Positions 1 to 50,056 of a stretch of DNA of 64,000 nt are shown here, in pieces. The position numbers were made by a program, and so were the translations under genes. The stretch spans positions 1 through 64,000 of the forward strand of contig OZ237757.1 of NCBI GenBank assembly GCA_965178125.1. The letters are read 5' to 3'. The notes below the pieces were generated by a model. It worked only from the letters and a program-made list of their open reading frames with translations, was not told where the DNA came from and did not search any database. The stretch is from Bilabrum cf. latius. Its lineage: Eukaryota. How positions within the stretch are numbered: the stretch's first letter is position 1; each line of letters opens with the position of its first letter.

Positions 1-285
1 CGGGGCCAAGCTCCTTCATTCCTATCCTGCGGCAGCAATGGCGCATCTGCGAGCTAAGGATGCCCGACACGGACCATTCTAATCCACCAGATGTGACCTC
101 AATGTGGCAGGTCTCATTCCGGTGTGTGGATGTCTCATCGCGGTTGTAGGATGGGCGTGGTGTGGGTCCTTCTGGATTTCTTGACATTTCGAGCATGCTT
201 ATTGATATGATTTTTTTTTCTCGTTGTATAGATTTGGATCTACAAGAACAGTATCTACTTCAACACGTCTAGACACCTGACAGGA

Positions 286-3200
286 TCAACCGAACATGTG
301 CTAGAGCTGCATCCTGCCCTTTCCGCGGCCATCAGCTTGAGCGGTCTCTTGAAGATGCTTCGCTGTTCTCCGCCATGATGCGAGCAAGCCCTAGACCTTT
401 CCAATGGACAGGGCCATCTTCCCTTGGTCCTCTCCCCAGACATCCGCTGCTTTAAATGCACTGATCTCGGCAGGACTCCAGTTGCCGGGCCCCTCGGCCA
501 ATTCTACCTCCATAGGATCGTCGTTGGCACGAAACACCGTCTGGCACACCTACTGCACCCGCTCGTCTTCATCGCCAAGTCCCACACCCAGGCCCATCAA
601 CAAAGAGTGCTGGCGCAACACATGCTTCCACTCCTGCACCACGCTCCACCCAGCAAGCGTCCGTGCCAAAGGACTGGGCTCTACTGCAAAGGGATGTCGC
701 TAGGATCTGACAAACCCCGTCAGAAGCAGCGTACCTCGCAGGCAGACCTTCTATCTGGCGGATCCAACTGGATATGTCCGACTACGCCTGTACAAGCGAG
801 CGGCTCCTCTAGCTGCTTGCACCACCAGACGAACTCGCTCCGCTTGGATGGCCTGCCATCCGAGAGCACCCAGTCTCCCCAGCCGCTCCGCTGCTCCTTC
901 CCCTTCGACCTCGGCAGCTCCAGCCAACTCACGCGCTCGCTCCACGGCATTTCGTAGGCCTCGGACCCGTCCAATGGACGCACGAACCATGGCAAGCACT
1001 GCGTGACAACTTGCACCGCCGTGCAAAGCATTGCGAGCTGTCTTCACCACCCGTCGAGCCATCCGGACCAGCGATGAGAGTCTCCTCAGCTTCTCCAAAG
1101 CCTCTTGCCCTCTACTTGCCGCGATTGCACAGCCGATACGAAAACCTACGCGCTCTTGCCGGCTGTTCGTCTCCGGCAGATCTCCATGCATAATTTCGTC
1201 TCTGTGGCGCAGATGTGCAGCCTCGGATCGGTCCATGAGCGCTTGCACCTTGGCCAAGAGCTTCACGGTCTCGACACCACACAGTTCCGTGAGGAGCATC
1301 TCGGCCCCTGCAGCAGCGTTGACGGCAGCTTGACGCTGTTCGCTTCCATCGTCCAGGACCATTGCGTCAGAGACATCGGACCTCAACCACCCTACTACCA
1401 AACGTGTTGCTCGCACTACGGGCTGCTATGCCTCCTCCTGGCAAGCCCGACCCGCCACCGTGGCGATGCCCATCAGCGCAAGGCTAGCCCGTCTGGTCTC
1501 GAAGCTTCCACGCCTAAGTACCGCTGCAGTACTCTCACCGATGGTACCTTCCTCCAATGGCAAGCGGAACTAGTCCCGCCAGGGCCTCCGCATATCCTCC
1601 ACGTCAAGCGCATCCCAAGGCTCCACCTACCGTGCACGAAGCAGTCGCCTGGTCCTGTCGTAGACGGAAGTGCTCATATATCTGAACTTCTAGATCCGCC
1701 GCATGGCTGCCAAGACTGCAGCTCGGGTGAGGCTGTCGACACGGGCAGCCTCTTGCGTCGAACCCGGCAGCGCCAGCGTCAAGCGCTCCCCTGCGTGCGT
1801 GCCCCTGCGAACCAAGTCGAGTTCCTCTTCCTTGACCAAACGGCCCTGCCGACGGACCGTGCCGATAGCAATCTGGAGCAGGTTGTCGTGTAGCACGGTG
1901 GCCGCCCTGCCAGCAAGCATCAGCTGCAGTGGGGAGGCAGACTGGGTCCCATCCACCCTTATGGTATCCGGCACTCCGCCCAGCGGGAGCGACCCTAGCC
2001 TGAACCGTCCGTCGTCATCCTAGCCGGTAAGACACAGCGCTAGCGGAAATGGCACACCAGGGGTGTTCACCGGAATCGCCGTCCCATGCGGAAACTTCTC
2101 GTTCTTGCCTCCTCTCACCATGGCCGCAAATGCACCAATTGCCGCCAAGGGAACGTCCTCGTACGCCTTCTGGAGCGCGGAGACCATGTCCTCGAGCGTT
2201 ACTCCCAGGTTTCTCATGGTCTCGTGCATCAGCGAGGCTGGAGCTCCCAGTAAGGTGGCCGCTTTGGCCTGCTGCTCAATGCTCTGCGTCAGAGCCACGG
2301 TATTCTCGAGCTGCATGACCACCTCGGACGCAAGCCTCCCTGGGCTGATTCGCACTACAGCAGTCAGTAGAGGGCCTGGTGCGTTGATCAGCACGGCAGA
2401 CACCAAGGCCGGGTGCAGCATTCGACCAATGACCCGGCCGAGCTCCACGCAGGGATCGTCACTGCCGCTCTGCAGGAACGACCTCAGATCCAGCAAGGCG
2501 CAGTCCTTGGGAGACTCAGTCCCAGCGGCGAATCCGACAACGTGGCGCCGGCTGTCAGCCCGTGTTACCGCGAGTGGTCGCTACCCCGTGCAGGCAATGA
2601 GCGAGGCCGACTGCACACCCACCACGATGAGTGACGCTACGCCGTGCAGCAGCTTCGGAAGCACCTCTGGAGAGCGGGCCTCCGGATCCGTGATCTCCCT
2701 CACCCCGCCCCTGGTCACAACCTGAAGCACCATAGCCAGAGTTGCCTGGGCTACGCGGCACTGGCCGTTCCAGTTGCGTGGATCCTTCTCCACCGTTCGC
2801 CGTCGGTCCGCAATGGTGCCATCCGCCACATGCCAGATGGCCTGCCGCAGTCTGGCCTCGGGACGCGGAAGGACGGACTCCATGATGGACCGGGTCATGG
2901 CTTGCCCAGTCTGGGTGGGGGCCACCATCTGCGACACATCCAGCGCAAGCATGCGCAGCTCCCCTGCGACTGCCTGCTGAACAGCTAAACCGTCCGACAC
3001 CTGCTCAGCCGCCATAGCCTTTATCTCGATACTGGCCGCCGTAGCCATGGCCCCTCGGACCGCCTCCTCCAAGTCCCGCGTGACGGCATGCGCCACCTCC
3101 CGCTGCACCATGGCAGCAACTGTGTCAAAGAAGGGCGCTCGAACTGTCGACGTTCCTTCCGCCAGGGCATCCACGAGACTGGCGTGTCCGTCCTCAAGTC

Positions 3201-6200
3201 CCAGCGCCATTGCTAGTCCCATCAGAAGACCGGGCCCTGCCATGCTGAATTCGACGCGAAGCGATGCTCGAGCGTCACCTATAGCCTGCAACCTGCGACA
3301 CGCGATCTCGGTGGCCTCGTCGTGCGCAACCCTTGCCATGGTGGCCGCAGCAGCCCGCCCCACCTTTGGAACCTGCTGCCTGCATCGCTCCAGCTCACCA
3401 TACAGCCGAGACCCAAGCCGTTGGTGACTGTCGCCGCTGAGCCTCGTGGAGCGGAACGCCTGCTCGACGTACATCTGCACCCCGTGAGATACGCTCAGCA
3501 TCGCGGGCAAGAGCTTACGAACAAACTCGTCGTCCCGCTCGCGGGTGGCCTGCGATACCAGCTCAGCCACGTGCTGAAAGTCATGCTTAGTCATGGCAGC
3601 TTGCGTATCGCCTCTGGCACGAGCCCTGAACTGCACACTGCCCAGAGATGGGCTCATGAGCAGGCAGTTCACGTTCTCTTCATCCACTTGCATTGGGAAG
3701 ACGAACTAGCTCCCCACCTGTCCGAAGCCCGGTACGGAGGAGATGTCGGCCACGGCATCACCCGCAAGTGCCATGGCATGACGCAGGCCCAGCACGCTCG
3801 GAAACGCAGCGTGCATGTCGCCGCCACCTGCCATGAAGCCCAGGTCCATGGAGAGCAACACGGGGTCCTGGCACTGGATCTCTGGTCGATGTTGCCCGAG
3901 CTCCGTCGCCATGCGGATGGCGTCCCTCCCGGCGGCAAGAGGGTCGACGAACACTACAGGGTGCCCGCCGTGGTCCGGAGGGTCCTCCTCAGGCTCACCA
4001 GCGGCCGGAGCCTGTCGCAGCATCAGGGATCGCATCACAGCAACCGCCGCCTGGTTCTGGCCCCCGACGACCAGGATTCGGTAGATCGAGCACGCCAGGA
4101 CCCCTTGGATCTTCAGTCCGTCAGGATATCTCAGCCTGTGGGGCAGATGGCTGACCTGGGTGGGATGCAGGGCCGCGTCCTCGCTCAGAACCCGGAGCAC
4201 TTCGCACAGGAAGTACCCGGGCCTGATGCGATGCCCGCCATCAGGCTCAGCAGTCCCACGCACGCCCATGTGACGGTCTCCAGGACTCAAAGTCTCGGTG
4301 TGGGTGCTTCCGCGAGAGACACCGACGGGCGAGTCGGTTGCTACAATCGCGTACGATGCGGAGAGTCCCTGCGCCGTCGTGGCAGTCCTCGGGGTCGACT
4401 GCACCATGAACTCGGGCCCGCGGTACCCCTCCTTCTCTCTCACGTAGTTGATGGCACCTGCGATGCCAATCAGGAGCGACTGCACGGCCTGGTCGAACGG
4501 CGTTCCAACGAGGCGCATTCCCTCCAGTCGCCGGATGTTCCAGCGCCTCGCGAGTGTGCGCAAGGAGGCCTGCTCTTCCTCAGACCCTGCGTGAGCAACG
4601 CCAAACACCCGAGCCACACCGCCCTCCGGTAGCACGACTCGCACCTCAGCCGCCCCCGCCAGGAGGACAGAGACCGAGACGTCGCCAGATCCGACCCCGC
4701 GCTGTTTGGGCATCATCGTGAGGTACTTGCGGAGCGTGGCACGTGCGGATTTCACGGCCCTGGCATTGCCTCGCACTGTGCCGGTGCTTCCCTCCAGGAT
4801 CGCTTCAGCTTCCTCTAGCACCCCAACCTCCTCGCTGCTCTGGTGGAAGCGACGAGCTGCACTTCGAACGTCCGATGTCAGGGATTGGACGGTCACGTGG
4901 TCCCCTGCTGGTGCAGGGAGAGCGTGATGGATGCGGTGCAGCCGCAGCGGCTCCGAATCCACGCCCATGTTCTGGATCCCCATCGGTCCAAGGTACGCGA
5001 CGTCGATGCGGGGTGAGTAGTACGCGCCGTGACTCCTCGGCGTGCCGGGATTGTCCCGCTCCTACGTGGGGATGTGCCGGTTGAAGACGATGCTGTAGCC
5101 GAGCCGGGGCCTGGATGAGCCGCTCGTGTCCACCTCGGTGCGCTGGTGCTGCTGCGTGGCCGACTGCACCCTGATCTGCCCCCCGTCCCTCTGCAGACCC
5201 CTGCGCCCGCAGAGGACCCCATCCTGCGTCGCCGAGTCGGCTCCAATCAGCACGTCGATGAGGCCGTAGGCTTGGTCCAGCGGCTCGTCCAGCAGGAGCC
5301 GTGACACCGGCCCCCCAAGCGCCAGCATGAACGGGCTGGTCTGCACCTCCTGGGAGGCTCCGGCGCCGGATAGGATCCCGACCACCTCCATGGCGTCGAC
5401 ATCGGAGAGCTCAGAGCGGACCGCCACGGGGGCCGCCATGCCGTCTGGTGGGTTCCGCAGCACATCCGGGGCGGCCTCCTGCTCCTCTTCAGGCTCGCCT
5501 TCCAGCTCGGCATCCGCAGCTCCGAAAGCCTCCGCGGCAGGATCTCCACCATCCGCTTCCTCGTCGCCACCTTGGTCTCCGTCCGAGTCCCACTGGCCTT
5601 CCCTACCCCACTCGCCTTCCCCAGCCTCATACCCGGCATCTTCGTCGCCCTCTGCATGCTCCTCCGCCCCAGCCGGCTGCGCCGCCGGCCCCTCCTCCAT
5701 CTCGTCCTCGTCCTCGTCCTCGTACATGAACGCTGGAGGCTGCTCGGAGAGCCCGACCGCGTCAAAGACCGTCTCGTCCACGCGGTTGTACTCGATGTAG
5801 TGATCCCACTCCGTGCGGAGCGGAGAGAGCTTGTGGCTGTGCAGCCCGGGCTCCGCCAGCATCGGAGACGGCCAGAAGCTGACCGCCACCGAAGCCAGCT
5901 TGCTCCGAATGAAGGCAGCCCCTTCCTCGTTCAGGTCTTCGCTCTCCAGCATCTTGGTGATGTCAGTCCAGCCAACGAGCTGCACGAGAAAGCGGCCGCG
6001 CCTCTGCGCGCGCTGCTCCACGCCGGCAGCATCAGTCTCGGCATGCAGGAGGCTGTCCACGACGACAACGGCGCGCCTCTGGTACGCCCACCAGCGCCGC
6101 ATGCCTTGCATGGTCACCGTCTCCATCACTGGAGGTGCGAGCGCCCTCCACACCTCGGGAGGCAGCTCCTGCCTGCCAACGCAGGTCAGCAGGCCCTGCA

Positions 6201-7272
6201 GGGCCTGCACCGCCTCGTCGTCCACCTCCCATATGTGGTAGGCCAGCATGGGGTGCTGCGCGAGGTCGTCTGTCGCCTCGTGCATGCCGAACCGGTACTC
6301 GGGCGGGAGGTTGACGGCCAGGGCCTCCTCTCCATGCGCTCCCCCAGGGTCGCCGACGACCAGGTTCCACGCCTGCACGGGTGGCGCACCGACCTCCCCT
6401 CCGGCGTCTGGGCCTGCGCCACCGCCTTGGGCGCCGGCTGCCTCTGCACCGGCAGCGAACACGACTCCGGGGATGGGCAGCTCGGGCGCTCCTCCCTCTG
6501 CCCCGAAGAGCGGTTGCTGGCCCTGAGCATCCCAGACCATGGCCTGCCGAGCTGCCTGGGTGGCCGCGTGGGCGGCTTGGCGCCCGAGGAAGATGGCCTG
6601 GACCGCTTCTGGGGGCTCGTCGTCCTCCATCGCGTCCTCCCCTGCGCCGACCCCGGCCAGGACGGGCACCTCGGCGAGAGGCACGGGCCCAGGGACGAGT
6701 TGGTGCTGGGCAGCCTGGGCAGCTGGCTGCTGCTCGGCTGCTGGAGGGGCCGGACCGACGCCGGCTGGCCCACCTGCAGGCTCCTGCTGGGGCTCCGGGA
6801 TCGGGAGGAAGGCGTCGGCATCGCCAGCTGGCGGCTCGGGCTGCAGGCCTCCTGGGACCGGCAGGTTGGCACCCGGACCAGCGGGGTGCTGGGGCGGGGC
6901 GGCGGGCATCGCCTGCTGGCCAGCAGCAAGAGCTGCACCCGGTGGTGGTTGTTGGGCGCCCTCTTGCTGCTGGTGCTGGGGCTCCGGAGCATGCTCGCCG
7001 ATGGCTGGGACGGGGGCCGGCAGGCCTGCCGCATCGCCCCCCCCGGCGGCATGACCGCCTGGCGCTGGCCCCACCTGGGCCGGGATCTGGGCCTGCGCCT
7101 CGCCGGCCGGCGGGCCAGGCAGGGCGGCACCTCCTGGTTGAAGTGGCCCTGGGACTCCGATGCGCACGCGATGCGGGTTCTGGGCGTAGCCCTTCGCGCG
7201 GCGGTCCAGGAAGGCCCGGAGGTAATCGAGAGCCTTCACATGCTTGGTGGCGTCGTACGTGGACTGCGCCAT
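286..7272 (-). CDS. Giant intronless hypothetical protein, ~2328 aa if TAG=Gln; Pro/Ala/Gln-rich and acidic N-terminal third, then an apparently folded region
   Basis: ORF-track pieces 5062-7272, 3706-4983, 2581-3693, 2020-2496, 1690-1974 and 751-1416 are in one frame. They are separated only by TAG (13 in total, at 5062, 3706, 2581, 2020, 1690, 1627, 1570, 1426, 751, 700, 550, 391, 301). There is no TAA/TGA until TGA at 286-288. Confidence 0.85.
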
Positions 7273-7842
7273 GACCAGACTGCGGACAGAGATGCCACAA
7301 GGATATATAATATACTTGGGATGTGATTAGTATGATGGTACGATGCGTTGTTCCCTGGTGGCGCACTCGTCACGGCGGTGCCGCGCATCAGGTTCCGCAA
7401 CCTGATCCGGGCCACCACAAATGTTGTCGCAGCACACCTACCGCAAGCAAAGTGAGCATTGGGCGCGCAGCCTATATATCGCCGCGCAATTGTTTGCAGT
7501 ATGTTATATTATTTGATAATATGCGCGAGATTAGTTCCAACGAGTGCTTGCCGTCGCGCAATTGAGGCAAACGTCTGAACCACGTTGCAGCAAGCGCATT
7601 GCGCAAGGCAATCCCCACGCATACCCCATCGATTTGACTCACGTTTGCTTTAGGGTTGTATGCACAATATGCTATAGTAGCTATATGCCAAGTATGCGCC
7701 TCTGCAATTGAATACAAGGAGCGCAATATGAGTGTTTCTGATTTCGCGCTGCTCGTTGGGTGAACGGGTAGGTTTCGGCGTGACAAGTGCAAGTTGCGTG
7801 CACTTTTGATGCGAATCTGTAATTTTTTTTCGGTTTCGCGTG

Positions 7843-7936
7843 GGTTGCTGTGGTGGTGTAGTGGTATTGCGTACGGTTGGTAATCGCACCCCGGCCTACC
7901 CCCGAGGTTCGATTCCCGTTGGGGCGATCTTTTTTT
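7843..7936 (+). ncRNA. tRNA-derived Pol III-type unit (degenerate tRNA-like)
   Basis: A-box TGGTGTAGTGG at 7854-7864, B-box GGTTCGATTCC at 7906-7916, 5' GGTTGCT can pair with 3' GGCGATC, followed by T7 at 7930-7936. Anticodon and T stems are imperfect, so it is not a canonical tRNA. Confidence 0.55.
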
Positions 7937-8164
7937 AATTTTTTTTCTGGGCTGGGGTCCGTTCCCCCCACGACTGGGGGATCGACCCAACATCATGGGT
8001 CCCAGGTCTGAGACCGAGTGCGCGGGGTTATGTGGGTGCCTTTTTTTTTTTTTTTGCCCTCGAGCTTGTCCAGGAGTAACCCTGGGTCTCGTGCCCGTGT
8101 TCCCTGTCGCATCCAAGCACCTGTTCGTGACCTCACCCGTGTTCCCCTGGCACCGCAGAGTACT

Positions 8165-9703
8165 ATGGCCGCCGCAAAGAGCTACAGCGCCAAGCACACC
8201 AAGGCATCTCGCCCTGTCGTGGCCTCCCTGGCTTCAGGCGTCGACACTTCCGCGGCCAAGCAGATCCTGCTTATCTCCCTCGTGGGCCTCCACCAGGATT
8301 GCGGGCTGCTCTGCGGATCTTCGGAGCACTACGAAGGGACCAAGAGGGAGGGCATCAGGGCCTGCGTGGATGCCATGCTGGCGCTGGATGAGTTTGAGGT
8401 GCCATTTGGCGTGCTCACAGCGCTGAACAGCCGCCTGTGCCCAGACGCGTCAGCCAGCAGCTCCGACTGGCCAGGCTTTCGGAAGATGAAGCAGCTTCTC
8501 ACGGCTCTGCGCGAGTGTGGCTACTCCACCACCACAAACCCATTCTTCAAGGCAGGCTTAGACGGCTTGCGCAGGCGCTTCAAGAACGTGCTCAAGTTCA
8601 TCTGCGATAATGGAGCTGGGACGGCCTCTGTACGTGCACGCGGAGGCATGGAGGCTGTATTCATAGAGGTGTTCGACATGGCAGTCAAGGACTCTGCCGG
8701 GGCTGCAGCAGGAGATCAAGGTGGCTCTTCGGGAGCCGCTGCTACCTCGCCGAGTGGGGCATCCCGTGCTCGGAAGGGCAAACGGAGTGCCATGGACGAC
8801 GACGACGATGAGGACGAGGACAACCCCGACAACAATGTGAAGGGCCAGAGGGCCTACACGGCCCGGAAAGCACGGGGTGAGCCGGATACAGACGGCTCAG
8901 AGTCCAGCGACTCATCGACCGAGCGACTGAACAACGATCTTCTCAGAGCCAAGCGAGAGGCGGAGGCCGAGAGAAAGGCCAAGGCAAAGGCCAAGGCAAA
9001 GGCCAGGACCAAGGCCGCGGGCAAGTCGAAGGGCAAGTCGAAGGGCAAGTCGAAGGGCAAGGCGAAGGGCAAGGGTGCACAACCGGCAGAGTCAAAGGGC
9101 AAGAAGGCGGCTGAGGCTGAGCCGCGGGCATAGAGGCAGCCCGAGCGACCGGCAGTCGTCCAACCAGGCAATGGCAGAGGAGCACGCCGCGCCGTTGAAC
9201 AGGAGAAAAGGGGAGCAAGTGGCGCAAGGAGTGGAGCAGCAGCATCACTGCCTCGTCAGGACTCTGACGAAGATGAAGAGGACATCGGTGGTCGGTACCG
9301 CGCAGACGCAGCTGGAGAGCAGGACGAGGACGACGCTCCAATGGGGTTTGAGCAGCAGGACGAGGAGGATGAGGAGCAGCTGGTTGAGGAAGAAGAAAAC
9401 GACGGCCAGAACCAGCAAGACGACTCTGACAACAACAGTGGAATGGAGGACACCGCCTTCACCGACTAGCAGCGGCACCTGGTGGACCGCATCCTTGCTG
9501 CCTGCGATGACAGCGCGATGGGCGTCAGCCGGACTCTCAAAGACATGCGCGAGGACGTGGAGGCAACAATTGAAGAGAGGGACCGCGAGTTGGAAATGTT
9601 CGCAAACCTGATGACGGCCCTCGAGAAGACGGCGAAAGGAGATCTCAATGCGGCAGACGTCGACGCTGTGGAAGCGCTCCTAGCAGCTTTCGGTGACGAG
9701 TGA
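8165..9703 (+). CDS. Hypothetical 512-aa protein: helical N-terminal domain, Lys-rich KGKS repeats, acidic tract, C-terminal coiled coil; possibly nucleic-acid/chromatin binding
   Basis: ATG at 8165. ORFs 8018-9133 and 9482-9703 are in one frame joined across TAG at 9131 and a second TAG near 9467. Ends at TGA 9701-9703. Confidence 0.8.
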
Positions 9704-9955
9704 GAGGCAGGCAGGGGGACGGCAATTGAGGTCAGTGGCAGCTGGGCCAGCTTGTGAGAGGAGTTTGCCAAAGTGTCTGCCATTGACCCATTCGGACGCA
9801 GCATTAGGAGCCGGGAGGCATTCTGTTGAGTCTTGACGTGTCAACCAGTTAATACCTTAGATCAAAGCAATCCACACAGCAAATACAACTGTCATGTACA
9901 CCATACCCATTCTACAATTGACAGATAAACCATGCATATTGAATAAACATGCAAA

Positions 9956-11341
9956 TCTTCATACACCCATATCGGCGCCGCGCGGCCAGAACGGAACCTG
10001 GGGAACATTTGGCCCATGTTGTGCTCCCAGGCCGTCCCGATGCAGTTTGAACGGTCTTCATATCACCTGTAGTTGCCGAGATCGTAGCACGTCGTTTTTC
10101 GGTGTGAAATTCTTCATACACCCATATCGGCGCCGCGCGGCCAGAACGGAACCTGGGGAACATTTGGCCCATGTTGTGCCCCCAGGCCGTCCCGATGCAG
10201 TTTGAACGGTCTTCATATCACCTGTAGTTGCCGAGATCGTAGCACGTCGTTTTTCGGTGTGAAATTCTTCATACACCCATATCGGCGCCGCGCGGCCAGA
10301 ACGGAACCTGGGGAACATTTGGCCCATGTTGTGCCCCCAGGCCGTCCCGATGCAGTTTGAACGGTCTTCATATCACCTGTAGTTGCCGAGATCGTAGCAC
10401 GTCGTTTTTCGGTGTGAAATTCTTCATACACCCATATCGGCGCCGCGCGGCCAGAACGGAACCTGGGGAACATTTGGCCCATGTTGTGCCCCCAGGCCGT
10501 CCCGATGCAGTTTGAACGGTCTTCATATCACCTGTAGTTGCCGAGATCGTAGCACGTCGTTTTTCGGTGTGAAATTCTTCATACACCCATATCGGCGCCG
10601 CGCGGCCAGAACGGAACCTGGGGAACATTTGGCCCATGTTGTGCCCCCAGGCCGTCCCGATGCAGTTTGAACGGTCTTCATATCACCTGTAGTTGCCGAG
10701 ATCGTAGCACGTCGTTTTTCGGTGTGAAATTCTTCATACACCCATATCGGCGCCGCGCGGCCAGAACGGAACCTGGGGAACATTTGGCCCATGTTGTGCC
10801 CCCAGGCCGTCCCGATGCAGTTTGAACGGTCTTCATATCACCTGTAGTTGCCGAGATCGTAGCACGTCGTTTTTCGGTGTGAAATTCTTCATACACCCAT
10901 ATCGGCGCCGCGCGGCCAGAACGGAACCTGGGGAACATTTGGCCCATGTTGTGCCCCCAGGCCGTCCCGATGCAGTTTGAACGGTCTTCATATCACCTGT
11001 AGTTGCCGAGATCGTAGCACGTCGTTTTTCGGTGTGAAATTCTTCATACACCCATATCGGCGCCGCGCGGCCAGAACGGAACCTGGGGAACATTTGGCCC
11101 ATGTTGTGCCCCCAGGCCGTCCCGATGCAGTTTGAACGGTCTTCATATCACCTGTAGTTGCCGAGATCGTAGCACGTCGTTTTTCGGTGTGAAATTCTTC
11201 ATACACCCATATCGGCGCCGCGCGGCCAGAACGGAACCTGGGGAACATTTGGCCCATGTTGTGCCCCCAGGCCGTCCCGATGCAGTTTGAACGGTCTTCA
11301 TATCACCTGTAGTTACCGAGATCGTAGCACGTCGTTTTTCG
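9956..11341. repeat. Tandem array of ~9 copies of a 155-bp unit
   Basis: ATACACCCAT recurs at 9961, 10116, 10271, 10426, 10581, 10736, 10891, 11046 and 11201. The only differences noticed are single substitutions in the first (gtgctccc) and last (agttaccg) copies. Confidence 0.98.
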
Positions 11342-11401
11342 ACAAATATTGAAGATGAAAATATTTTTTCCCCGACCCTGTCCCTGACTTTATATTAGAT
11401 A

Positions 11402-12487
11402 CCCTAACCCTAACCCTAACCCTAACCCTAACCCTAACCCTAACCCTAACCCTAACCCTAACCCTAACCCTAACCCTAACCCTAACCCTAACCCTAACCC
11501 TAACCCTAACCCTAACCCTAACCCTAACCCTAACCCTAACCCTAACCCTAACCCTAACCCTAACCCTAACCCTAACCCTAACCCTAACCCTAACCCTAAC
11601 CCTAACCCTAACCCTAACCCTAACCCTAACCCTAACCCTAACCCTAACCCTAACCCTAACCCTAACCCTAACCCTAACCCTAACCCTAACCCTAACCCTA
11701 ACCCTAACCCTAACCCTAACCCTAACCCTAACCCTAACCCTAACCCTAACCCTAACCCTAACCCTAACCCTAACCCTAACCCTAACCCTAACCCTAACCC
11801 TAACCCTAACCCTAACCCTAACCCTAACCCTAACCCTAACCCTAACCCTAACCCTAACCCTAACCCTAACCCTAACCCTAACCCTAACCCTAACCCTAAC
11901 CCTAACCCTAACCCTAACCCTAACCCTAACCCTAACCCTAACCCTAACCCTAACCCTAACCCTAACCCTAACCCTAACCCTAACCCTAACCCTAACCCTA
12001 ACCCTAACCCTAACCCTAACCCTAACCCTAACCCTAACCCTAACCCTAACCCTAACCCTAACCCTAACCCTAACCCTAACCCTAACCCTAACCCTAACCC
12101 TAACCCTAACCCTAACCCTAACCCTAACCCTAACCCTAACCCTAACCCTAACCCTAACCCTAACCCTAACCCTAACCCTAACCCTAACCCTAACCCTAAC
12201 CCTAACCCTAACCCTAACCCTAACCCTAACCCTAACCCTAACCCTAACCCTAACCCTAACCCTAACCCTAACCCTAACCCTAACCCTAACCCTAACCCTA
12301 ACCCTAACCCTAACCCTAACCCTAACCCTAACCCTAACCCTAACCCTAACCCTAACCCTAACCCTAACCCTAACCCTAACCCTAACCCTAACCCTAACCC
12401 TAACCCTAACCCTAACCCTAACCCTAACCCTAACCCTAACCCTAACCCTAACCCTAACCCTAACCCTAACCCTAACCCTAACCCTAA
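11402..12487. repeat. Telomeric repeat array (CCCTAA)181, i.e. TTAGGG on the minus strand
   Basis: Uninterrupted CCCTAA hexamers over 1086 bp, single orientation. Confidence 0.99.
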
Positions 12488-12525
12488 ACCCAATCCCCCT
12501 TTTTTTCTTTTCCCTGGCCCTAAGC

Positions 12526-12717
12526 GATGAGTTGGAAAGTGGGCTGGGAGGGCGGTGGATGAGTCGGAAAGCGGACTGGGAGGGCGGTGGATGAGTCGGA
12601 AAGTGGGCTGGGAGGGCGGTGGATGAGTCGGAAAAGGGGCTGGGAGGGCGGTGGATGAGTCGGAAAGTGGGCTGGGAGGGCGGTGTACTGGCCGGAGAGT
12701 GGGCTGAGAGGGCGGAG
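12526..12717 (+). repeat. Subtelomeric 32-bp G-rich minisatellite, 6 copies
   Basis: Unit GATGAGTCGGAAAGTGGGCTGGGAGGGCGGTG at 12526, 12558, 12590, 12622, 12654 and a degenerate copy at 12686. Confidence 0.92.
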
Positions 12718-12990
12718 GATGAACCAAGGTCTATTACGTAAACGAGTGGCGATTTACGAATGGATGTGATGGACTGAAGTTTACAAAACGGCTTAAATGT
12801 TGTACAGACAGTTCATGGTAATCTGAAGAGCTCAGCCAACATGGAAACCACCCCAATGTGATCTGGAATCCCCCGGATACGTACAATGGCAAACTTCCGG
12901 GTTGCACAGTTCAACGGCATCCAAGGTTCGAGGGGTACCTCTTGCTTGCATGCCTGATCCCCAATAGTATTCTGCTCACGGTGAGCTAAG

Positions 12991-15900
12991 TCACTGTGCA
13001 AAGTGCTTCGAGCGCTCCTCCATCTGCGCGTAGAGGACGTCAAGCAGGTTTGAGTTGAACCAGTAGTAGGAGCCAGACAGCCCGTTGTCATCCAGCAGCT
13101 TCTGCAGCTCCTCCCTGGGCATCGGGCGGTAGCAGATCGCAGTTGGGTAAGCGGGGTCCATGAGCTCCTTGAGTTTCTGCATCTCAGCCTCGTCGTCACG
13201 CTGGAAGCAGCCCATGTCCTGGTTGTTCGCCCACACGTCTTCGAAGAACAGGAACCAGAAAGCAGCGGCCGGGTGCCTAGAGATGGCATTCACGCGAGCG
13301 TACAGGAAGTCCAGCCCCTCTGCGTGCTTGTCTGGGATGTCGCGCATGACCGGGTTGGTCTCAGTGTGGAAGTAGGCCTCCAGCGCGGCGCGGGGCACAC
13401 CAAAGCAGTCGTAGACGTGGAACCAGAACGCCTCGTCCATAACCTCGTTGCGCTTCATCCGCTTCTCGTTCAGTTGGTTGCGGTAGGCCTGGGCGTCGTT
13501 GATGATCTTGGGCAGGTTGGCCTGCACGATGCTGCGGTTCTCGGGATACGAGGTCAGGATCTTGCCGATGTGCGTTCCGGGGCGCAGCTCCATGTCGGGT
13601 TGGATGCCTAGCTCGTTCGTGCTCATCACATCCACGTCGGTGCACGGCCTAGCTCCAGTGTGCGGCAGGTGCGCGATACCGTGGCCAGTCGACGTAGTGG
13701 ACACGTTGAACCCAGCGGCCATGGGCAGCGACTTGTTAGCGGACACGCTCAGACGTGCGTCGTTGTACGTGAACTGCACCTACACGGTGGAGTACCTGGT
13801 GTGGCGCTTGCCTTCCTTGTCTGTGTAGTGGCCATCCTCCATTCGCTTGGTCTTGGTCTTCTGGTAGTGGTGCTTCACCTGCTGCCCGTTGAGAGCGCGG
13901 ATCTGCCTCCGGAAGTCCTTCTTGCGGGCGATGTTCGGGTCATGCTGGTTCTGATACAGCAGTGTCTGGAAAGCCTGGGTGTCGTGGGCGAAGAGCGCAG
14001 TGAAAGGGAAGGCTTCCGAGGAGCAGTCGTCGTACACGATCACGCACTCGAACGGGTATGCGCGCACCCATAGCTTCCCGAAGAAGCTCTTGCTGTTCAC
14101 CTCAACCTTCCTGGCCTGCCCGCGGCTGAGCCCATAGCACTGCCGAGGGGCGGCCTTGAAGTTGGTCTCTCCCTGGAAGTACACGTCGACTCCTTCGAGC
14201 CGCTGCACTACCCACGCCATGCCTTCGCGCACAGCTGGGTTGCCCAGTGCCTCCCAGTGACCGGTGATGTGGTGGCGCCCGGTCTCGACCGTGCGCTGGT
14301 GCAGCTCCCGGAGCCGCCTGCAGACGTCCTGTCCCTCGGGGAACTCGTCCTTGATTGAGGCGAAGAACCCGTCGAAGAAGGTCTGCCACACGCGGTGCTT
14401 AAGCTCGGTCATGACTTGCCAGTTGGGAACGATGCGGGGCCCGCGGCCATGGATACCCAGCGTGGTATCAGTGAAGGAGAAGGCGCCGACGCGGTTCTTT
14501 ACGAACGACTGCAGGGCAGGCACCGAGCTCAGGATGAGCACTCCCATGACCAGGAAGGAGATGGCGTTGCTGACGTTGATGAGGATCCCCATGGCTCCTG
14601 AAGCGCCCGGTGCGATCTGCTCGATCGAGATGAAGCCGAAGCCCAGGGTCAACACGGCATTCACGCGCGAAGCGATCTGCATGGCATCAGACTGTGGGCT
14701 GACGAATGGCGCCGACCAAACGTTGTAGGCCGCATACAGCACTAAGATCACCAAAGTAGCCACGCCTTGGGGGACGGGCTGCCGCTACAAGACCACCACG
14801 GGCACTACGAGCAGGAGCTTGAAGACCAGGTCGATCACCTTGTAGTGCATGTGCCCGCGCTCGATGCCGTCGATAAGACTCACGTAGGGGCTGTTCGAGT
14901 ACCTCGGGTCTTCCTTGAGGTCCTGCTGGTACTGTTTGTCAGTGTAGGGCACCATCTTGCCCTCCTCGCCGGCTCCATCGGGGTCGAAGCGCATGTTGGG
15001 GTCCTCATCTGAGCCCACGGGCGCGTTGTTGGTGATGAGCCACCAGATGAAGATGGGTAGGAAAATCGTGTACAGCGCCATGATGACGGCGATACCCTGG
15101 AATGCAGTGTACGTGTCCCACGCGCCGCAGTCGCACTCGTACACGATGGGGTCCGTGTCCTCGATTGGCACGCAGTTGAGCTCGTTGCCACCGAGCTGCT
15201 CCTACAGCACGATGGCCATGCTGCCGTCGCAGATGAAGATCTGCATGCACACGCGAGCCACCGGGAGGTACACGCCCATGGCTGCCACGAGGATATACTG
15301 GATGCCCATGACCGTGTACGAAGACTCCTCCTTGATCTCCTCCCAGCTCTTGGACTCGTGACCGTCCACGAACTCGTCCGGCACGTTGCGGCACGCCTGG
15401 CACACCATCCATATGAAAGCAACAATGATGGCAATGGCCAGTATGGCGACCAGCACGTACACGTAGACGGGGTTGAACGAGAAAGTGTACCCCCACTCGA
15501 ACGAGATGATGGTGGACAGGTTACCCCACACCAGCTTGGCGTTCTCCAGGGCCTGCGAGCTGATCGTCGTGAAGAACAGCGCGATCGACTGGTAGGCCGT
15601 CACGAAGATCTCCAACTTCAAGATGTCCACGCAGTTGCACCGCGCCACCACCCCGGCAGCCGCCGCCGCAGCCGCCATGGCCACCGTCGAGATCATGGAG
15701 TAGCTCTGGCTGGCGGCCCCGCGCCAGTTGATCTGCCCCGCCACGTTCGACATTTGGTTCCCGGCCGTCTTGGCGAAATCGCTAGCCCCTGCAGCGGCAC
15801 CCTGCACGAAGGACGAGGACGCGATCGCGCTGCCCAGCCTCTGGGCCTCCTCCTTGGCGCGCACTGCAGCAGCGGCAGCCGCCGCGGCAGCCTACTGCGC

Positions 15901-17197
15901 TCCCTGCTGAGCCGCTGCAGCAGCGGCCTGGGCGTGAGGCGCCACCGCCTGGCCGGCAGCACTGGCCGCCTCTGCCCCCTGCGCCGCCGCGCCTGCCACA
16001 GCAGCTCCCGCAGCCCCCATGGCGGCGCCTGCCTGACTCGCCGCGGCCGAGGCAGCCCCTGCCACCTGCCCTGCCAGGGGGTTCACCGCCCCCGCCGCCT
16101 GACTGGCCCCGTCCATCGTCCACTTCAGGGTCTGCTTGCCCGCAGTGCCCGCCGCCCGCACCACGGCCAGCACGTGTTCCTTGGGCGCCCCATCCAGCTG
16201 CTGGACCAGCTGTCGCGCCCCCGCTGAGGCTCGCACCGCCATGCCGGGGGCCTGCTCGAGCGCCTGGGAGGCCGCCTCACCCGCCTGCCCCGCGATCTTA
16301 GTCGTGGCTCCAATACCGGTCTTTGCCGCGTCCGAGGCACCGGACGCGATCCTGCCTGCCATGGGAGCCGCCGCCGACGCAGCCGCCCCCCCTGCTTGGG
16401 TCACCCGCTCACCCACGGTGCGGGCGGCTCCGGCTGCATCCGCCGCGCGATCGGCTGCCATGTGCGCACCCTCTGCCATGGCCTCAGCTGCAGCCGGCGC
16501 GTGGGCAGCGGCGGCATCCGCAGCCATGGCCCCGGCCTGGCCTGCCTCGTGCATGGCCTGCCCCGCCGCGTGGGCAGCGGCTTCTGCGCCTTCGCGAGCC
16601 GCAGCGGCTGCTCCAGGCGCAGCAGCAACCGCCTGGCCCGCCACATTACCAGCAGCATCTCTTGCTACACCCGCAGCATCACCAGCGGCATCGATAGCAC
16701 CAGGAAGGGCCTCGCCTGCAGCATCGACGCCTTGACCCGCGAGTCGAGCGCCGCTCACGGCCATGCCTGCCGCAGCACCAGCAACTGCACCAGCGTGGCC
16801 CGCGGCAGAAAACGATCCGCTCTATCCGGCCTGAGACGCAGCCTAGCCGGCGCCGCTTGCCTGCAGTTGGCCAGCTACAGCCTGCCCCGGCTTGGCAATC
16901 TCGCCTGCGGCATCGTAGCGACCTTGCTCCTATCTGCAACAGCAAGAGGATCGAGAGACAATCAAGACCACATAAGCAAAGAAAAGAATGTCGACCTCCT
17001 GACCAGGAGCCGAAAAAGTCGTTGGAAAGCTATGAAGCGACCTGTCAAAGCGTGCCACCCTTCCCAAGGCGGCGTGCGTGGCCTAGCTGGGTTCGGCCAG
17101 GGTCAAATGCATTCAACAAATCTCACTCTTCACCCTCTCCAATACCAAAATTCTCTTCTTTCTCCTCAGCGGAAGCTTGGCTCCCGGCTTCGGACAT
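12991..17197 (-). CDS. Hypothetical multi-pass membrane protein (~1337 aa) with a long Ala/Gly-rich N-terminal region
   Basis: Exon 1 17197-17127, predicted GT-AG intron 17126-16934, exon 2 16933-12991. Seven in-frame TAGs (16930, 16843, 16822, 15892, 15202, 14785, 13780) join five ORF-track pieces. Several hydrophobic segments; ends at TGA. Confidence 0.8.
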
Positions 17198-29379: not shown

Positions 29380-32300
29380 ATGAGCCTAGCGAACTTTAGG
29401 GCAAAATAGCTGATTTGGGTCACTTTGCTGTTCCACGCTGCATTCGCATTGAGACCGCTCTCTGAGATTCGAAGGATTCAAGACAGTCTAGGTTCCGTGC
29501 AACGGCCCCATCAATTTCTCAGGTAAGAATTTTGTAGGTTTTTACTAGCAGCCATGCTTGCTTGCTGTCGTGTCACGTCTAGAGCGATGCTTCAATCTTA
29601 TCGGCTTGGCGCAGGGATTGTCGATCGCACGCCATCACCCCACTGCTGGAGCTGGGACGGCACCTTGCAATAAACAACCTGTGTGAGCTATTTAGTAACT
29701 CTACAGCTGTGGATGGGCCAGGACAATTCCCATCAGGGAGGGCGGTAGAGGCCAGTGCCCTGCCAAGCCTGTCTATCAAGTCAAGCTGGTGGTTCGATCG
29801 AATAGATGACTGGAACAACCGCGCCAAGGTCGCCCTGGGTAGCGCTTCTCCAAATATGTAGCATGGGTGCCAAGAGGTTGCGCAGCACCTCGCAGCTTGG
29901 AACAGCACGAAGGGCTGGACAGTTGGCACGCAAGAGGTGGGAGTTGCATGGTGTGGCCAGCGAGTCTCTTGGTTTTGGAGCCGAGCCCAGCTTGCACTCG
30001 TTCGAAAGTAGCACAAAAAAGCAACACGGTTACTGCGCTCCCTGCTTCGGTGCCCGGAGAGCTCTTTGGCCAGGGGCCCGCTGCTCTGTCTCCTGGCGAG
30101 CAGTGCTGGCGCCCAAGCTGACGCTGCCATCCAGCAGCAGCAGCCTGCCATCGAGGGGCAGCCTCCCATCGATGGGACTGGATCAGCGAATGGGAAAGAT
30201 GGAGGGATGGAACCTGTTCCAGATGTTGTTTTGCATTGGCCGTTCTACCTTGGTCTTGGTGCCGCAGAGCTGAGGTTCGTGCACAGAGTGGCACAGCAGG
30301 GGGCAGGCCTATTCGATGGTGTGGGCGAGGCCCCGGGGCCGTTTGCAGGGGGCTTGCAGCTTGGGCTGCAACTTGGGCTAGAGAAGGTGAACAGTGAGGT
30401 GACTGGTGCAGGGGAGCTGGTGCTGGAAGCATCGCAAGGCAGGGGCGCAGGGGCAGTTCGGCAGACCAGAGCGAGGCGGGTGCAGCGCGTGGGGCGGGCG
30501 GTTGCATACCTCGTGGCAGGCGGCGAGTGCGGGTCCATCGTGCCGCACGTGGCTTGCATGAAGCTAGGCACTGGAGATGCATCGGAGCACGCCGCACGTG
30601 CAAGCAGCGAGGCCTGGTGCGGGGGCGGGGCGGGCAGCGGGTAGCAAGAGACGTGGCAGGCGGACGGTCGGCCCAACTCCGGCGAGTGGGGCCACGTACT
30701 GCAGCTAGAGAGAGAGACCCAACTGCGGACCCGCTGCCTAGATCGATTGGCAGAAGTGGCGGCCGGCATGCAACGGAAGAGTGAGGCTATAATGCTCGCT
30801 TGGGCGGGTCGCAGCCTCGATGCTGGGGAGGGAAGTGGAGGGGGTGTGGGTGACGGCGAGGATGGGTGGGGGGCTGCAGCGGGGGGACCGGGCGGCGGAG
30901 TGGCAGGCAGGGGCCTGGGTGCAGGATCACAGTAGGCAGACAACTCGCACGAAATCAGCCCTTCCGACAATCAGGGTCAGCAGCGAGCAGCGATCTCCCC
31001 AAGGGTGCGAGCAGTTGGCCTTCCGATCGCTCTGCGGGTAGCCCGACTCGCCTTTCGGGGTCTGACACAGGCAAGCGGTAGGCAGGCGAGAGACCCCGAC
31101 TGGGAGAGTGCCCGCGATGCCTGCAGGGACATGATGGGCGATGGGCGGCTTGGGCAAGGGTTGGCATGTGCCCGTGCAGGCGATGGTGCAGCGGCGGTTC
31201 GAGGCACTGTGAGGGTGCTGTGCGCGGTGCTGTTGCCAGGGGAGGTGCACGTGCAGGCACAGTGCCCATCCAGTTCTTCGAGCAACATGAAATTAGGTGA
31301 ACAAGACGTGGATAGCAGTGGAATTCAGCTGCTCGACACAGCTCGCGAGTGGGCAGCACGTGCTGATGCATCTTTGGCTCTGGCCTGGCGGCAGCCGCAA
31401 AGCAATCTGTCGATCAGTAGCAACGCATCCTTGCTGCACTCGGAGGTTGTGAGCCGATCTGTCCTGTGCGATGTGACCAGATCCGTCAGGGCCGCTGGCA
31501 TGCTGCGCCAGGAACAGGCAAGCAGCCCGTCTTTCGACATGTGCCGACTGCTTGCAGTAGCAGCGGCGAATAGGTGTCCTGGACGCATAGCGACAGCGAT
31601 GAAGGGGTTTGGCTGCTTCATGGTGCATACTGGATCCAACCCGCACTTTTTGCCGCTTGCATTTATGGAAGGCGGTGGTGCCCACGAGTAGGCCACATCC
31701 CGGTGGGCGCATCGGTTGCACTCAAACCTGGCAGTGTACGCAGGTGAAGCCGATATGCCGTACGCAGACGGCATCTTGGGATACTGGCCGCATCTGTGCA
31801 TCAACCAAGAGCAGAATCTAGATTCAATTGAGCCTGGCCTGCATGTAGCCTGGGATAGGAGCTCCTCTATGCCTTGCCTACGCCTGGGCCGGGCAGATGG
31901 GATGGGCAGCAAAGCGCACGGCGGTTTCCATGCCTGGCAAGGAGGCATCCCTGGATTCCTGGTGTTTTCAGCGCTGCAGCGGCTTGAATTCATGGCTGTC
32001 CAGAGAGGCATGCCGCCTTCGTCCCTACCCAATTCAGCTTTCAGAGGGTAGCGGTCCGACGCTCATGGCAGCGGACTGCCAGTGCTGCTGCCCCCGCGTG
32101 CCGACCCTGGGTGCGTCTGGCTGGCGGCAGCCTTCGCGTGCAGCGATCCCCACAGGCTTGCGGAGCCGGTCCAGGCGCTGTCGTCAGGTGCCTGCGGGGC
32201 CCGTGCAGCCGATGAAAGTGATGATAGTTCGTTAATTTCACTGATGCAATCCGACCGGCTAAGCCTCTGGCTTGCAGCAGTTTCGCAGGCCCACTCACGG

Positions 32301-34523
32301 CTCGTGAGCAGGCAAGCGAACGAGAGGTCCATTGGCCACGGGAGCCGCGCTTTGCAAGAAGCAGCAGCCCTGCACGCTGCAATCAGGGTGGATGATGGGG
32401 TGCTCCCTGCCGCTGCAAGTGGACTGCTCCGGGACCTCATTGTGGGCCTGTATCTCCGGGGCTCTCCCATGAGAATCCGGGGCACTTGGGAATTTGCCAG
32501 TGCCAGCATCGATTGCCCGGATACATCCTATGCACTGCAGCAAGTGGCGCTGGCCGAAGTGGTGCTATTTGAGTACACCGGGGCCAGGTACGAGATGGTT
32601 TAGGGCGTGTTAGATCGGTTGGTTCTGCGAGTTGCTCTCGGCGTGGAGCTGTTTGCCCGCAACGAGGACGAGGATCTTTCCGTCGTGCACAGCTGCATCG
32701 CTAACCTCGTACGCACCGTCGTACGTCACGCCACTGTAGGCTCCGAGTATGATTCCAGGTCCACGCTCGAGTTATCTTAGGACGATCGGTGTTAGCAACT
32801 GCAGCGCATTGACTCGATGGGAGCCGAGCTCCGAGTCGTGTCAACCGTGGAGCCGCGCCCACGCGGATGTCACCGGTGGTGCAGCGTGTGCATGGCCCAG
32901 GTGTGGGGCCTGTCTGCATACCTCGGGCAGTGTTTCACGCGCTCCACAGGGGATGGGAGCGCGGCGGTGGTGCGCTACATCCGCAATCGCATCAGTAGGA
33001 ACAGCAGGGCGATGCAGAGTGTGCCGAACACGTGCGCGGAGGGACAGGCACAGGATTGCGACCGCCTGCACTAGTCGATGGTGCACAGACACAGGGGTTT
33101 GCTTGCACGCAGGTCGTCTCAGGTACAGCGGGATGCCGCTTCTGCCCTTGCCAAGCTTGGTAGCTCGTCGCTGGGTAAGGCGCACCCACGGGACATCTGG
33201 AGGGCCTCTCTAGTTTCGATCAGCCTGTCTGATCTGCTTGGTCACAGTGGTCAGGCCTTGGGTGGACTCAAGGTGCTCCGCCTGAGCACGGCTCCCCTGC
33301 AACAGCATGTGAATTCTCTCGTGAGGGCAGGCAGTAGTAGAGGTCTCCTGCAGGCTCCCTTCGGATGGACTGACCTCTCCAAGGCATGCTTTGGGGCGCT
33401 GCTGGAGCGGAAGCACCTAATGGCCGCCCTGCTGACGGCCAAGGCCAGGCAGAGCAAGGGGGCAGGGCTCAAGGAGGCGGCCAAGGAAGCCATGGTGTAT
33501 GCCCGCAGGCACCTGCCGAGTCGTGAGCGGAGCGTGGAAGCTATGGTGCTCGTGGCCGACCTGGCCTCGGCCGGCACCGGTATTGGTGCAAGGATGGGGG
33601 CTCTAGTTGGCATATAGGAAGCAGAACAAGCCGAGGCAAGCCCGACAGCAGGAGCAGGATCAGCCGCTCCACTAATCACCAGCAGCGCAAGCGGTCAGCA
33701 AATGCCTATTATGAATGCGTCCGGGCTGCAAGCTGCGCTCTACTCGTATTCGAGGGCGATTAGCCTCCTGCAGCAACCCATGGGCGGTCTGCCTGACGGC
33801 ACACCCCCTGACGCGGTATGCGCATGCGACGCCTGCTGCCTGCACGCCCGGCTCGGCACAGGTGCCCTCTCCATCCTGCAGCACCATGAAGTGCTAGAGG
33901 AGCACATGCAGGTAGTGGAGGGGCAGACGCGGGCACTGAGGAGGGCATCGAGGGCCTGGGGCACCAGCAGCCTGCTCGCTCGCGTGGGACTTGCCGCTGC
34001 ATCGGAGGCCCGCCCGGTTGTCGGGGCGGCAGACTGCAACCTGCAGGACCAGGGGGTCTTGCAGGAGTCGCTGCCGTACTCGCTTGGGGTGCACGCTGCT
34101 CTGCGGCTGGGCTGGCTCTCACTGAGCCTCGCAGAAGGCGACCAGGAGGTGGTAGCTCAGGCGGGGCAGTGGTTCCAGCGGGCAGGCCGGTTTGCAGCCG
34201 CAGGGGACAGCGCGCTGGGTGAGAAGATGGCAGAGCTCGGCGAGGCAGTGGCGAGGCATGCCGGCGGGGTGGGGCCCAGGTCACGCTCTCGGGCAGGCGT
34301 GCAGCGCTCCTTGGATGCATTGGTGCTTGCAATGGAGCAGGATCGAGTGGCCGAGAGCTAGGCAGGGAGTCTCTGCTCCTCGAAGGCGCTGCTGAGGGGC
34401 CGGGCACCGCTGTGGGACATGTGGCTGCTGCGGGAGATTGGAGCCGAGCTGATCCGCGGCGGGATGCCCCGGATTGGCACTGCGGCCATGGTGGCGTCCA
34501 GTCGGTTCGAGAGGGGGCGATGA
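29380..34523 (+). CDS. Large hypothetical protein (~1700 aa) with predicted signal peptide, Ala/Leu-rich and probably helical
   Basis: Eight ORF-track pieces (30066, 30747, 31005, 31716, 32082, 32817, 33078, 33702) share one frame and each ends in TAG. The frame is open from ~29583 to TGA 34521-34523. Short first exon from ATG 29380 with donor GTAAG at 29523; the acceptor is uncertain. Confidence 0.7.
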
Positions 34524-46483: not shown

Positions 46484-46539
<56 letters not shown>

Positions 46540-49847: not shown

Positions 49848-50056
49848 CCCTATTTGATCATTTCGGTACAAGCTACGTGCACTTGCCCGGGTTGAATGCT
49901 GAATTGGCAGCGAGCGAACCATCAGCGAAGCTCAGCCAAAGGTTCCCGTGAAGCTCAGCCATAGGTTCCCAAAGCTCTGGCCACGACTGGCCACCGGTTA
50001 GCTTGGCGTAGATTGCATAATCGAGCGGGACCACAGCTGCCAAGCGTCGCTGACCA

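Follow-up and report, generated by a model that had tools for sequence, protein, structure and literature searches.

A possible compound chromosome end in Bilabrum cf. latius: a gene-bearing block beyond a perfect, internally placed telomere tract

At its start, contig OZ237757.1 of the Bilabrum cf. latius assembly GCA_965178125.1 carries a full-length telomere tract that is followed by DNA on both sides. We analyzed the first 64,000 nucleotides of the forward strand, to which we refer as the window. Left of the tract, on the distal side, lies at least 11.4 kb of DNA that holds, from the tract outward, a 59-bp spacer, a 155-bp satellite, an open reading frame (ORF) of 557 amino acids (aa), a transfer RNA (tRNA)-like unit and an ORF of 2328 aa, and that runs past the window's left edge. 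In the assembly, the structure is genuine, and it is an uncommon one. Our analysis suggests, tentatively, that it is a compound chromosome end resembling those that carry Y' elements in yeast, with an internal telomere tract left by recombination-dependent copying. The likeness to Y' concerns how the locus works, not membership of the Y' elements. Taken together, our observations favor recombination at a chromosome end, in a little-known protist in which UAG has been recoded, over a new kind of element.

The telomere tract itself (11401-12487, + strand) was resolved by Tandem Repeats Finder into 181.2 copies of ACCCTA with 100% matches, that is, into a perfect (CCCTAA)181 of 1,087 bp, and with 181 perfect copies it is not attributable to chance. 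Throughout its length it keeps a single orientation, which is that of a left-end telomere for the DNA on its right. On this core side, the tract degenerates into variant repeats (ACCCAATCCCCC..., CCCTGGCCCTAAG) that make up the proximal telomere junction (12488-12525, +), and these are followed by a G-rich minisatellite with a 32-bp unit in 6.2 copies (12526-12722, +; Tandem Repeats Finder) and by the first gene of the chromosome core. The distal edge is instead abrupt: it reads ...TTATATTAGATA then CCCTAA, with an A-run on neither strand and with no microhomology visible beyond the spacer. An earlier note on this DNA had described a (CCCTAA)181 array of one orientation, succeeded by a minisatellite and genes in the layout of a left chromosome end, and here repeat finding and direct reading of the sequence agree with it. 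The same note had seen no head-to-head junction. Inspection of the sequence bears this out, as the tract contains no TTAGGG/CCCTAA inversion point and TTAGGG is nowhere repeated in tandem in the window; a head-to-head fusion of two chromosome ends is ruled out by the tract's single orientation. The second telomere array for which the note had proposed to look was not found, since no further run of at least two telomere hexamers, in either orientation, exists elsewhere in the 64-kb window.

Next to the distal edge lie two sequences that are central to our interpretation. The 59-bp spacer (11342-11400, +, from the sequence) connects the satellite to the telomere tract and holds three degenerate, C-strand-like hexamers (CCCCGA, CCCTGT and CCCTGA). 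The satellite (9956-11341, +; Tandem Repeats Finder) consists of 8.9 copies of a 155-bp unit with 99% identity; its first and last copies bear private variants, and an extra degenerate copy with 61% identity is located left of the array, at about 9795-9955. The earlier note had taken this satellite to be terminal, at the outer end of the block, but it is found on the opposite side, toward the telomere tract.

The satellite and the spacer can be followed beyond this assembly. Eleven public runs from six studies contain words of the left block, all of them as short-word contigs, and the share of the block's sampled words is 0.86-0.92 in four runs of one organism label and 0.72 (run X5) and 0.40 in other labels. 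Four runs (X1, X3, X5 and X6) were compared over positions 11180-11424, of which 11395-11424 are masked as repeats in all four. In X1, three single satellite contigs stand at 5,233, 6,000 and 7,000 in word depth, and the spacer has a word depth of ~2,530 over 11351-11395; the satellite also occurs in X3 and X5, and the spacer is covered in X3 too. The satellite contig with a depth of 6,000 is a 50-nt stretch that is identical in all nine array copies, so that one genome copy would correspond to a depth of ~670 or less if X1 represents the assembled strain. Set against the depth of the spacer, this would give about four or more spacer copies, which is a hint, as such depths are not copy numbers. 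X3 further contains a diverged satellite variant that is joined to the spacer at 11350, as well as the left boundary of the array with the unique block, recovered with one base different. Finally, CCCTAA on the + strand stands directly left of the satellite at the equivalents of 11188 in X1 and of 11244 and 11267 in X3, with one contig for each joint. These variant joints in the contigs of public runs prove that other satellite loci exist. X6 has no coverage of 11180-11424 and X5 covers the satellite and not the spacer, gaps that are uninformative, and no alternative continuation was present among the 8 loose ends listed out of 11. Exact probes for the satellite and the junction had no match in IMG/VR, in JGI metagenome contigs or in GTDB genome contigs.

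Hence, the satellite recurs at other loci and the spacer is probably multi-copy. At other loci, a telomere oriented as at a normal left end directly adjoins the satellite on the outside, and the satellite-spacer unit acts as a repeated telomere-associated module whose orientation leaves room for a telomere distally and for a second telomere tract proximally. At the locus described here, at least 10 kb of host-like genes occupy the distal side. This also corrects the earlier description of the DNA left of the tract as unique, which does not apply to the satellite nor, probably, to the spacer. The variant CCCTAA-ACCC ends both the tract of the window (12481-12500) and the telomere-satellite contig of X1 with its joint at 11188; this common ending may reflect a shared ancestral junction or a frequent variant repeat.

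Repeats of this kind are also the setting in which assemblers misjoin, and a misjoin is the first alternative to be weighed. A contig composed of satellite, spacer and (CCCTAA)n could have been threaded into a true telomere through the shared repeats, or a chimeric read could have brought the two together, in which case this pairing of left block and right core would be absent from the cell. The 100% perfect tract of 181 copies does resemble a live terminal telomere. Still, the repeated stretch spans only ~2.8 kb (9956-12722), which is within the span of ordinary long reads, and the private variants in the first and last satellite copies are those expected at a natural array edge. Moreover, a spacer joined to CCCTAA in non-terminal orientation must exist somewhere in either case, so that there would still be DNA distal to an internal telomere tract and only the partner chromosome would change. 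We regard a misjoin as unlikely.

Under the compound-end reading, the tract at 11401-12487 would be the present or very recent working left telomere of a chromosome core that starts at 12488. Beyond this old telomere would lie a block of host type, comprising two lineage-restricted genes and a tRNA relic and ending in the satellite-spacer module. To acquire it, the terminal tract would have paired with an internal tract that already adjoined the spacer at another chromosome end, and break-induced replication would then have copied outward via the spacer, the satellite and whatever lies beyond, leaving the old telomere behind as an internal tract in its native orientation. Such a course implies that the spacer-to-telomere junction is itself repeated, that the junction seen here was made by recombination, and that the block should end in a telomere somewhere left of the window. 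Several of the observations speak for it, namely the single orientation of the tract with its degenerate core-side and abrupt distal junctions, the other satellite loci, some with terminal-type telomere repeats directly distal to them, and a left block that is host-like in everything measured (GC content, intronless divergent ORFs, TAG usage and codon choice). In addition, the layout parallels that of Y', and no mobile-element or viral hallmark was found.

In a recent Y' study (bioRxiv 10.1101/2025.11.13.688250), Y' elements are described as 5.2-6.7 kb long, with one or two ORFs and an internal array of 8-20 copies of a 36-mer. The same study reports that their centromere-proximal side often carries an internal telomeric tract of 20 to about 500 bp, at most 957 bp, and that they are acquired by break-induced replication, with a terminal tract invading an internal one (bioRxiv 10.1101/2025.11.13.688250). 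Measured against this description, the locus shares with the Saccharomyces cerevisiae Y' a gene-bearing block distal to an internal telomere tract of native orientation, a tandem array of short units, one or two ORFs, and internal tracts that can serve as recombination homology. It departs from the described Y' in size, with at least 11.4 kb visible versus 5.2-6.7 kb, and in its tract, which is 1,087 bp long and perfect versus mostly 20-500 bp. It also lacks a helicase domain of the Y'-Help1 type, and there is no sequence relationship between the two. A second parallel is provided by the internal (TTAGGG)n islands of human chromosomes, which lie in native orientation at the seams of subtelomeric duplication blocks copied between chromosome ends. 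Here, too, native-orientation repeats mark the seam of a block, although the human islands are short and degenerate and the tract described here is full-length and perfect.

A number of points weigh against this interpretation. The ORF of 2328 aa (P0001) was found on only one other contig in protein collections, which does not suggest a large family of such blocks. No helicase or other Y'-type gene was detected with Pfam, either in P0001 at E≤1 or in the 557-aa ORF (P0002) at E≤0.01. The multi-copy state of the spacer is only hinted at, as summed contig depth is not copy number, and the joint between spacer and CCCTAA (11395-11424) is masked in the run contigs and so was not seen directly in them. 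The join of block and core is a putative one, taken from the assembly sequence. Lastly, a perfect internal tract of 1,087 bp exceeds any internal Y' tract given in the Y' study (bioRxiv 10.1101/2025.11.13.688250). Its length and perfection argue for a very recent event, for perfection of the tract by assembly polishing, or for a terminal telomere that was wrongly joined.

The abrupt distal edge could also have arisen by fusion of a telomere to a break, that is, by ligation of the deprotected telomere of the right chromosome to a broken end of another chromosome, with the break just beyond the satellite array. This would turn the tract into an interstitial telomere deep within a fused chromosome. 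Such an event would account for a distal junction without visible microhomology beyond the spacer and for a left block that is host-like and gene-dense. It would, however, require the break to have hit a spacer that seems to be repeated and that is linked elsewhere to a telomere-associated satellite, as well as the inactivation of one of the two centromeres of the fused chromosome. A perfect internal tract of 1.1 kb would moreover be unstable and should decay. On balance, a fusion of this type strikes us as quite improbable.

We compared the left block with the right side of the window. GC content per kb is 0.57-0.73 in the left block versus 0.51-0.74 on the right side. With a pool of eight right-side genes taken to represent the host, codon choice correlates at 0.976 for P0001 and at 0.94-0.95 for P0002, and at 0.84-0.98 for the pool's own genes. 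TAG occurs at 5.6 per 1000 codons in P0001 and at 3.6 in P0002, within the ranges of the 14 right-side frames (0-9.8) and of the eight-gene pool (2.4-7.7). In codon usage and TAG frequency, the left ORFs are hence indistinguishable from the host genes on the right.

P0001 (286-7272, - strand) comprises 2328 aa without introns; its frame includes 13 TAG codons and closes with a TGA stop. Its N-terminal ~330 aa are rich in proline, alanine, glycine and glutamine, and its GC content at codon positions 1, 2 and 3 is 0.73, 0.50 and 0.73. We rejected the possibility of a chance ORF, as 2,328 open codons are unexpected at a GC-based estimate of ~0.015 TGA or TAA per codon. P0002 (8030-9703, +) is likewise intronless, with 557 aa (512 aa from the Met at 8165), two TAG codons and a TGA stop, and it contains tracts of low complexity that are either rich in lysine, alanine and glycine or acidic. 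One of the former, at 8940-9080, is built from 12- and 24-bp repeats and is flanked by acidic runs on both sides. This kind of composition, rich in lysine, alanine and glycine with acidic runs, is typical for chromatin-associated proteins. The claim that the block holds intronless orphan ORFs in a code with UAG as sense is thereby upheld for both genes.

Neither ORF could be assigned to a family. Pfam gave no family at E≤1 for P0001 or for the five alternative-frame ORFs of the left block, and none at E≤0.01 for P0002, for which Pfam was the sole family search. This orphan state is not distinctive here, because 8 of the 14 right-side ORFs, three of them 1555-1937 aa long, likewise have no Pfam family and only 6 have one above the cut-off. 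When 5.8 billion proteins were searched by words, residues 600-2328 of P0001 had no relative among the long ones. Residues 331-1530, compared exhaustively by HMMER with 1.84 billion representatives, gave five matches, all of them fragments with 98-100% identity, and a search among shorter proteins with residues 1531-2328 matched four fragments. Those fragments for which a contig is listed all map to one ENA contig of 12,766 bp. Over seven fragments, the copy on this contig (proteins P0126-P0133) differs from P0001 at 25 of 1,894 aligned residues (1.3%), and its frame seems to be broken twice, near residues 369-405 and 1418-1451, either through true decay of that copy or through assembly errors. 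P0001 had no relative in IMG/VR viral contigs or JGI metagenome contigs, and its residues 738-1188 had no usable match in the ESM Atlas. For the same residues, an alignment-free AlphaFold2 model reached a mean pLDDT (predicted local distance difference test) of 38.4, which is too poor to use. The left block has no paralogue elsewhere in the 64-kb window.

Given these orphan genes, it is tempting to speculate that the block is the proximal end of a mobile element attached to the telomere or of an integrated large DNA virus, and that the hallmark genes are situated further left, outside the window. The earlier note had inclined to this view, proposing a new telomere-targeting element or an endogenous virus. 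In this scenario, a giant retroelement or virus-like genome, of which the 11.4 kb are the inner edge, would reside in a protist host that reads UAG as glutamine. The satellite and spacer would be its terminal joining module, and P0001 and the rest of its genes would be co-adapted to the host's variant code. Joining could have proceeded in the manner of Athena/Terminon or TRAS/SART elements, by reverse transcription primed from the G-strand end, or in that of human herpesvirus 6 (HHV-6) or the Aurantiochytrium integrant, by homologous recombination, and the other joints between telomere and satellite would be truncated copies at further chromosome ends. The constant end of the spacer next to CCCTAA, combined with variable satellite joints, indeed resembles the pattern of a fixed 3' end and 5' truncation; both P0001 and P0002 (the latter by Pfam alone) are orphans, and the block extends past the edge of the window. 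There is also a precedent in the 269-kb mirusvirus-like element at one chromosome end of the stramenopile Aurantiochytrium (bioRxiv 10.1101/2023.06.15.545109), and the closest named relatives of a DDX3-type helicase of our host include stramenopiles. Nevertheless, telomerase healing of breaks in a subtelomeric satellite would give equally variable joints, and codon and TAG usage of the block match the host.

The searches for hallmarks point the same way. Pfam detected no reverse transcriptase (RT), endonuclease, integrase, capsid, terminase, portal or polymerase family in the visible 11.4 kb of what may be a much larger block. The earlier remark that no hallmark gene is recognizable is in line with this, as Pfam found none in P0001, P0002 or the five alternative-frame ORFs, and its suggestion to look for RT, integrase, capsid and PolB with TAG read as sense led to none within the same 11.4 kb. 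No hammerhead or other Rfam family reached the gathering score in the window or E≤1 in 9700-11400, no terminal inverted repeat or long terminal repeat was found beyond matches of chance size, and the telomere junction shows no poly(A) or defined 3' tail. P0001 and P0002 are divergent rather than co-oriented. In IMG/VR, neither a relative of P0001 nor an exact match to the two short probes was found. Thus, what stands of the earlier proposal is DNA with orphan ORFs distal to a left-end telomere tract, and the idea of a new element or endogenous virus gained no support from these tests. We consider an element or virus of either kind doubtful.

Integrated HHV-6A/B and Marek's disease virus (MDV) have a constant junction between unique sequence and a perfect telomere array, with the host telomere left proximal. 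The locus shares with them a side of unique sequence that meets a perfect array and a telomere proximal to the added DNA, but its visible part has no herpesvirus-type gene and no sign of a virus, and its host is a protist with UAG as a sense codon. Unlike TRAS/SART, HeT-A/TART and MoTeR elements, it has no poly(A) at the junction, and no RT was found in the visible 11.4 kb of a block that the window's edge cuts. According to work on the endonuclease-less Penelope-like elements Athena and Coprina and on Terminons (PMC8557442), these attach to G-rich telomere overhangs, and Athena-type elements combine a Penelope-type RT with hammerhead motifs next to short reverse-complement telomeric stretches. 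As in these elements, the + strand of the block has its 3' end abutting C-strand repeats; unlike in them, neither an RT nor a hammerhead was found in the visible part, and the ORFs are divergent. The Aurantiochytrium limacinum element LE-Chr15 is described as a 269-kb mirusvirus-like element between two sets of subtelomeric repeats, whose genes are mostly ORFans but include those for capsid, terminase and PolB, whose GC content deviates from that of the host, and which is thought to have entered by subtelomeric recombination (bioRxiv 10.1101/2023.06.15.545109). Compared with that account, our block is similar in being ORFan-rich DNA distal to a complete chromosome-end set, and differs in that its visible 11.4 kb reveal neither a hallmark gene nor a shift in composition.

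Between the two divergent ORFs lies an intergenic region of lower GC content (7273-8164; GC of 7001-8000, 0.572). It contains an 85-nt unit (7845-7929, +) that contains box-A-like and box-B-like motifs, has a T-run after it, folds into a tRNA-Thr(GGT)-like structure with mismatched stems and sits in the divergent promoter region of P0001 and P0002. ARAGORN reports this fold only at a relaxed threshold; at default settings ARAGORN does not report it, nor does Rfam up to E=10. The Pol III-like unit that the earlier note had listed is thus a decayed tRNA-like sequence; it could be a tRNA relic or the remnant of an element akin to short interspersed nuclear elements. Over 7273-8165, Rfam yielded one match only, PreQ1 at E=7.4, which is at chance level. 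A scan for promoters and terminators of bacterial type in the intergenic region is not applicable to a eukaryote. At the left edge of the window, an open frame of 26 sense codons followed by TAA (2-82, +, from the ORF reading) runs off the sequence and may be the tail of a further upstream gene; its length is that expected by chance and too short to count as evidence.

On the core side, the first gene is P0003 (12991-17112, -), an ORF of 1373 aa with eight TAG codons and a middle part resembling a multi-pass membrane protein, whose sole Pfam match is a weak one to TRP under the cut-off of that family. Further to the right, two orphan ORFs are paralogous to each other, with 34% identity over 820 aa (E=1e-85): 42034-47847 (-), encoding 1937 aa, and 50057-54739 (+), encoding 1560 aa. 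They are divergent, have no Pfam family and are separated by ~2 kb, within which lies a riboflavin-transporter-like gene.

The reading frames of the window also bear on the genetic code of the host. If only TGA and TAA are counted as stops, the 64-kb window contains 46 frames of at least 400 codons, versus 20 with three stops, and the longest frames carry 6-14 TAG codons each and terminate in TGA or TAA. It follows that TAG is a sense codon and that TAA and TGA terminate. TAG is used as sense in essentially all long ORFs, for example at 12991-17112 (-), 29466-34523 (+) and 50054-54739 (+). As for the amino acid, the TAG at residue 1564 of P0001 corresponds to a glutamine codon in the only other public copy, at one of one informative sites, which weakly suggests that TAG is read as glutamine; five other TAG codons of P0001 coincide with the ends of standard-code ORF calls in that copy. 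An alignment of a glutaminase-like host protein with PDB sequences ended short of its TAG site. A full-text literature search, with supplementary files excluded, found no description of nuclear UAG reassignment in a matching organism or group. The best named relatives of the DDX3-type helicase on the right side have 55-57% identity and include stramenopiles (Triparma, oomycetes, diatoms and Hondaea), with fungal and plant relatives close behind at 52-56%. A position of the host lineage near the stramenopiles is only suggested by these sequences.

The locus also draws attention to an organism that uses UAG as a sense codon and that has one conserved protein with stramenopiles among its closest named relatives. 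If the join of block and core were an artefact, it would mark a place at which the assembly needs correction. Should the join be genuine, this protist keeps a telomere tract that is perfect and of full length within a chromosome arm, and genes that look expressed lie distal to it. Interpreted as a compound end, it would then add a case from outside yeast and mammals to the known chromosome ends that grow by subtelomeric copying onto working telomeres, and it would offer a natural case in which to study how an internal tract of 1.1 kb is tolerated with respect to capping, fragility and the silencing of distal genes.

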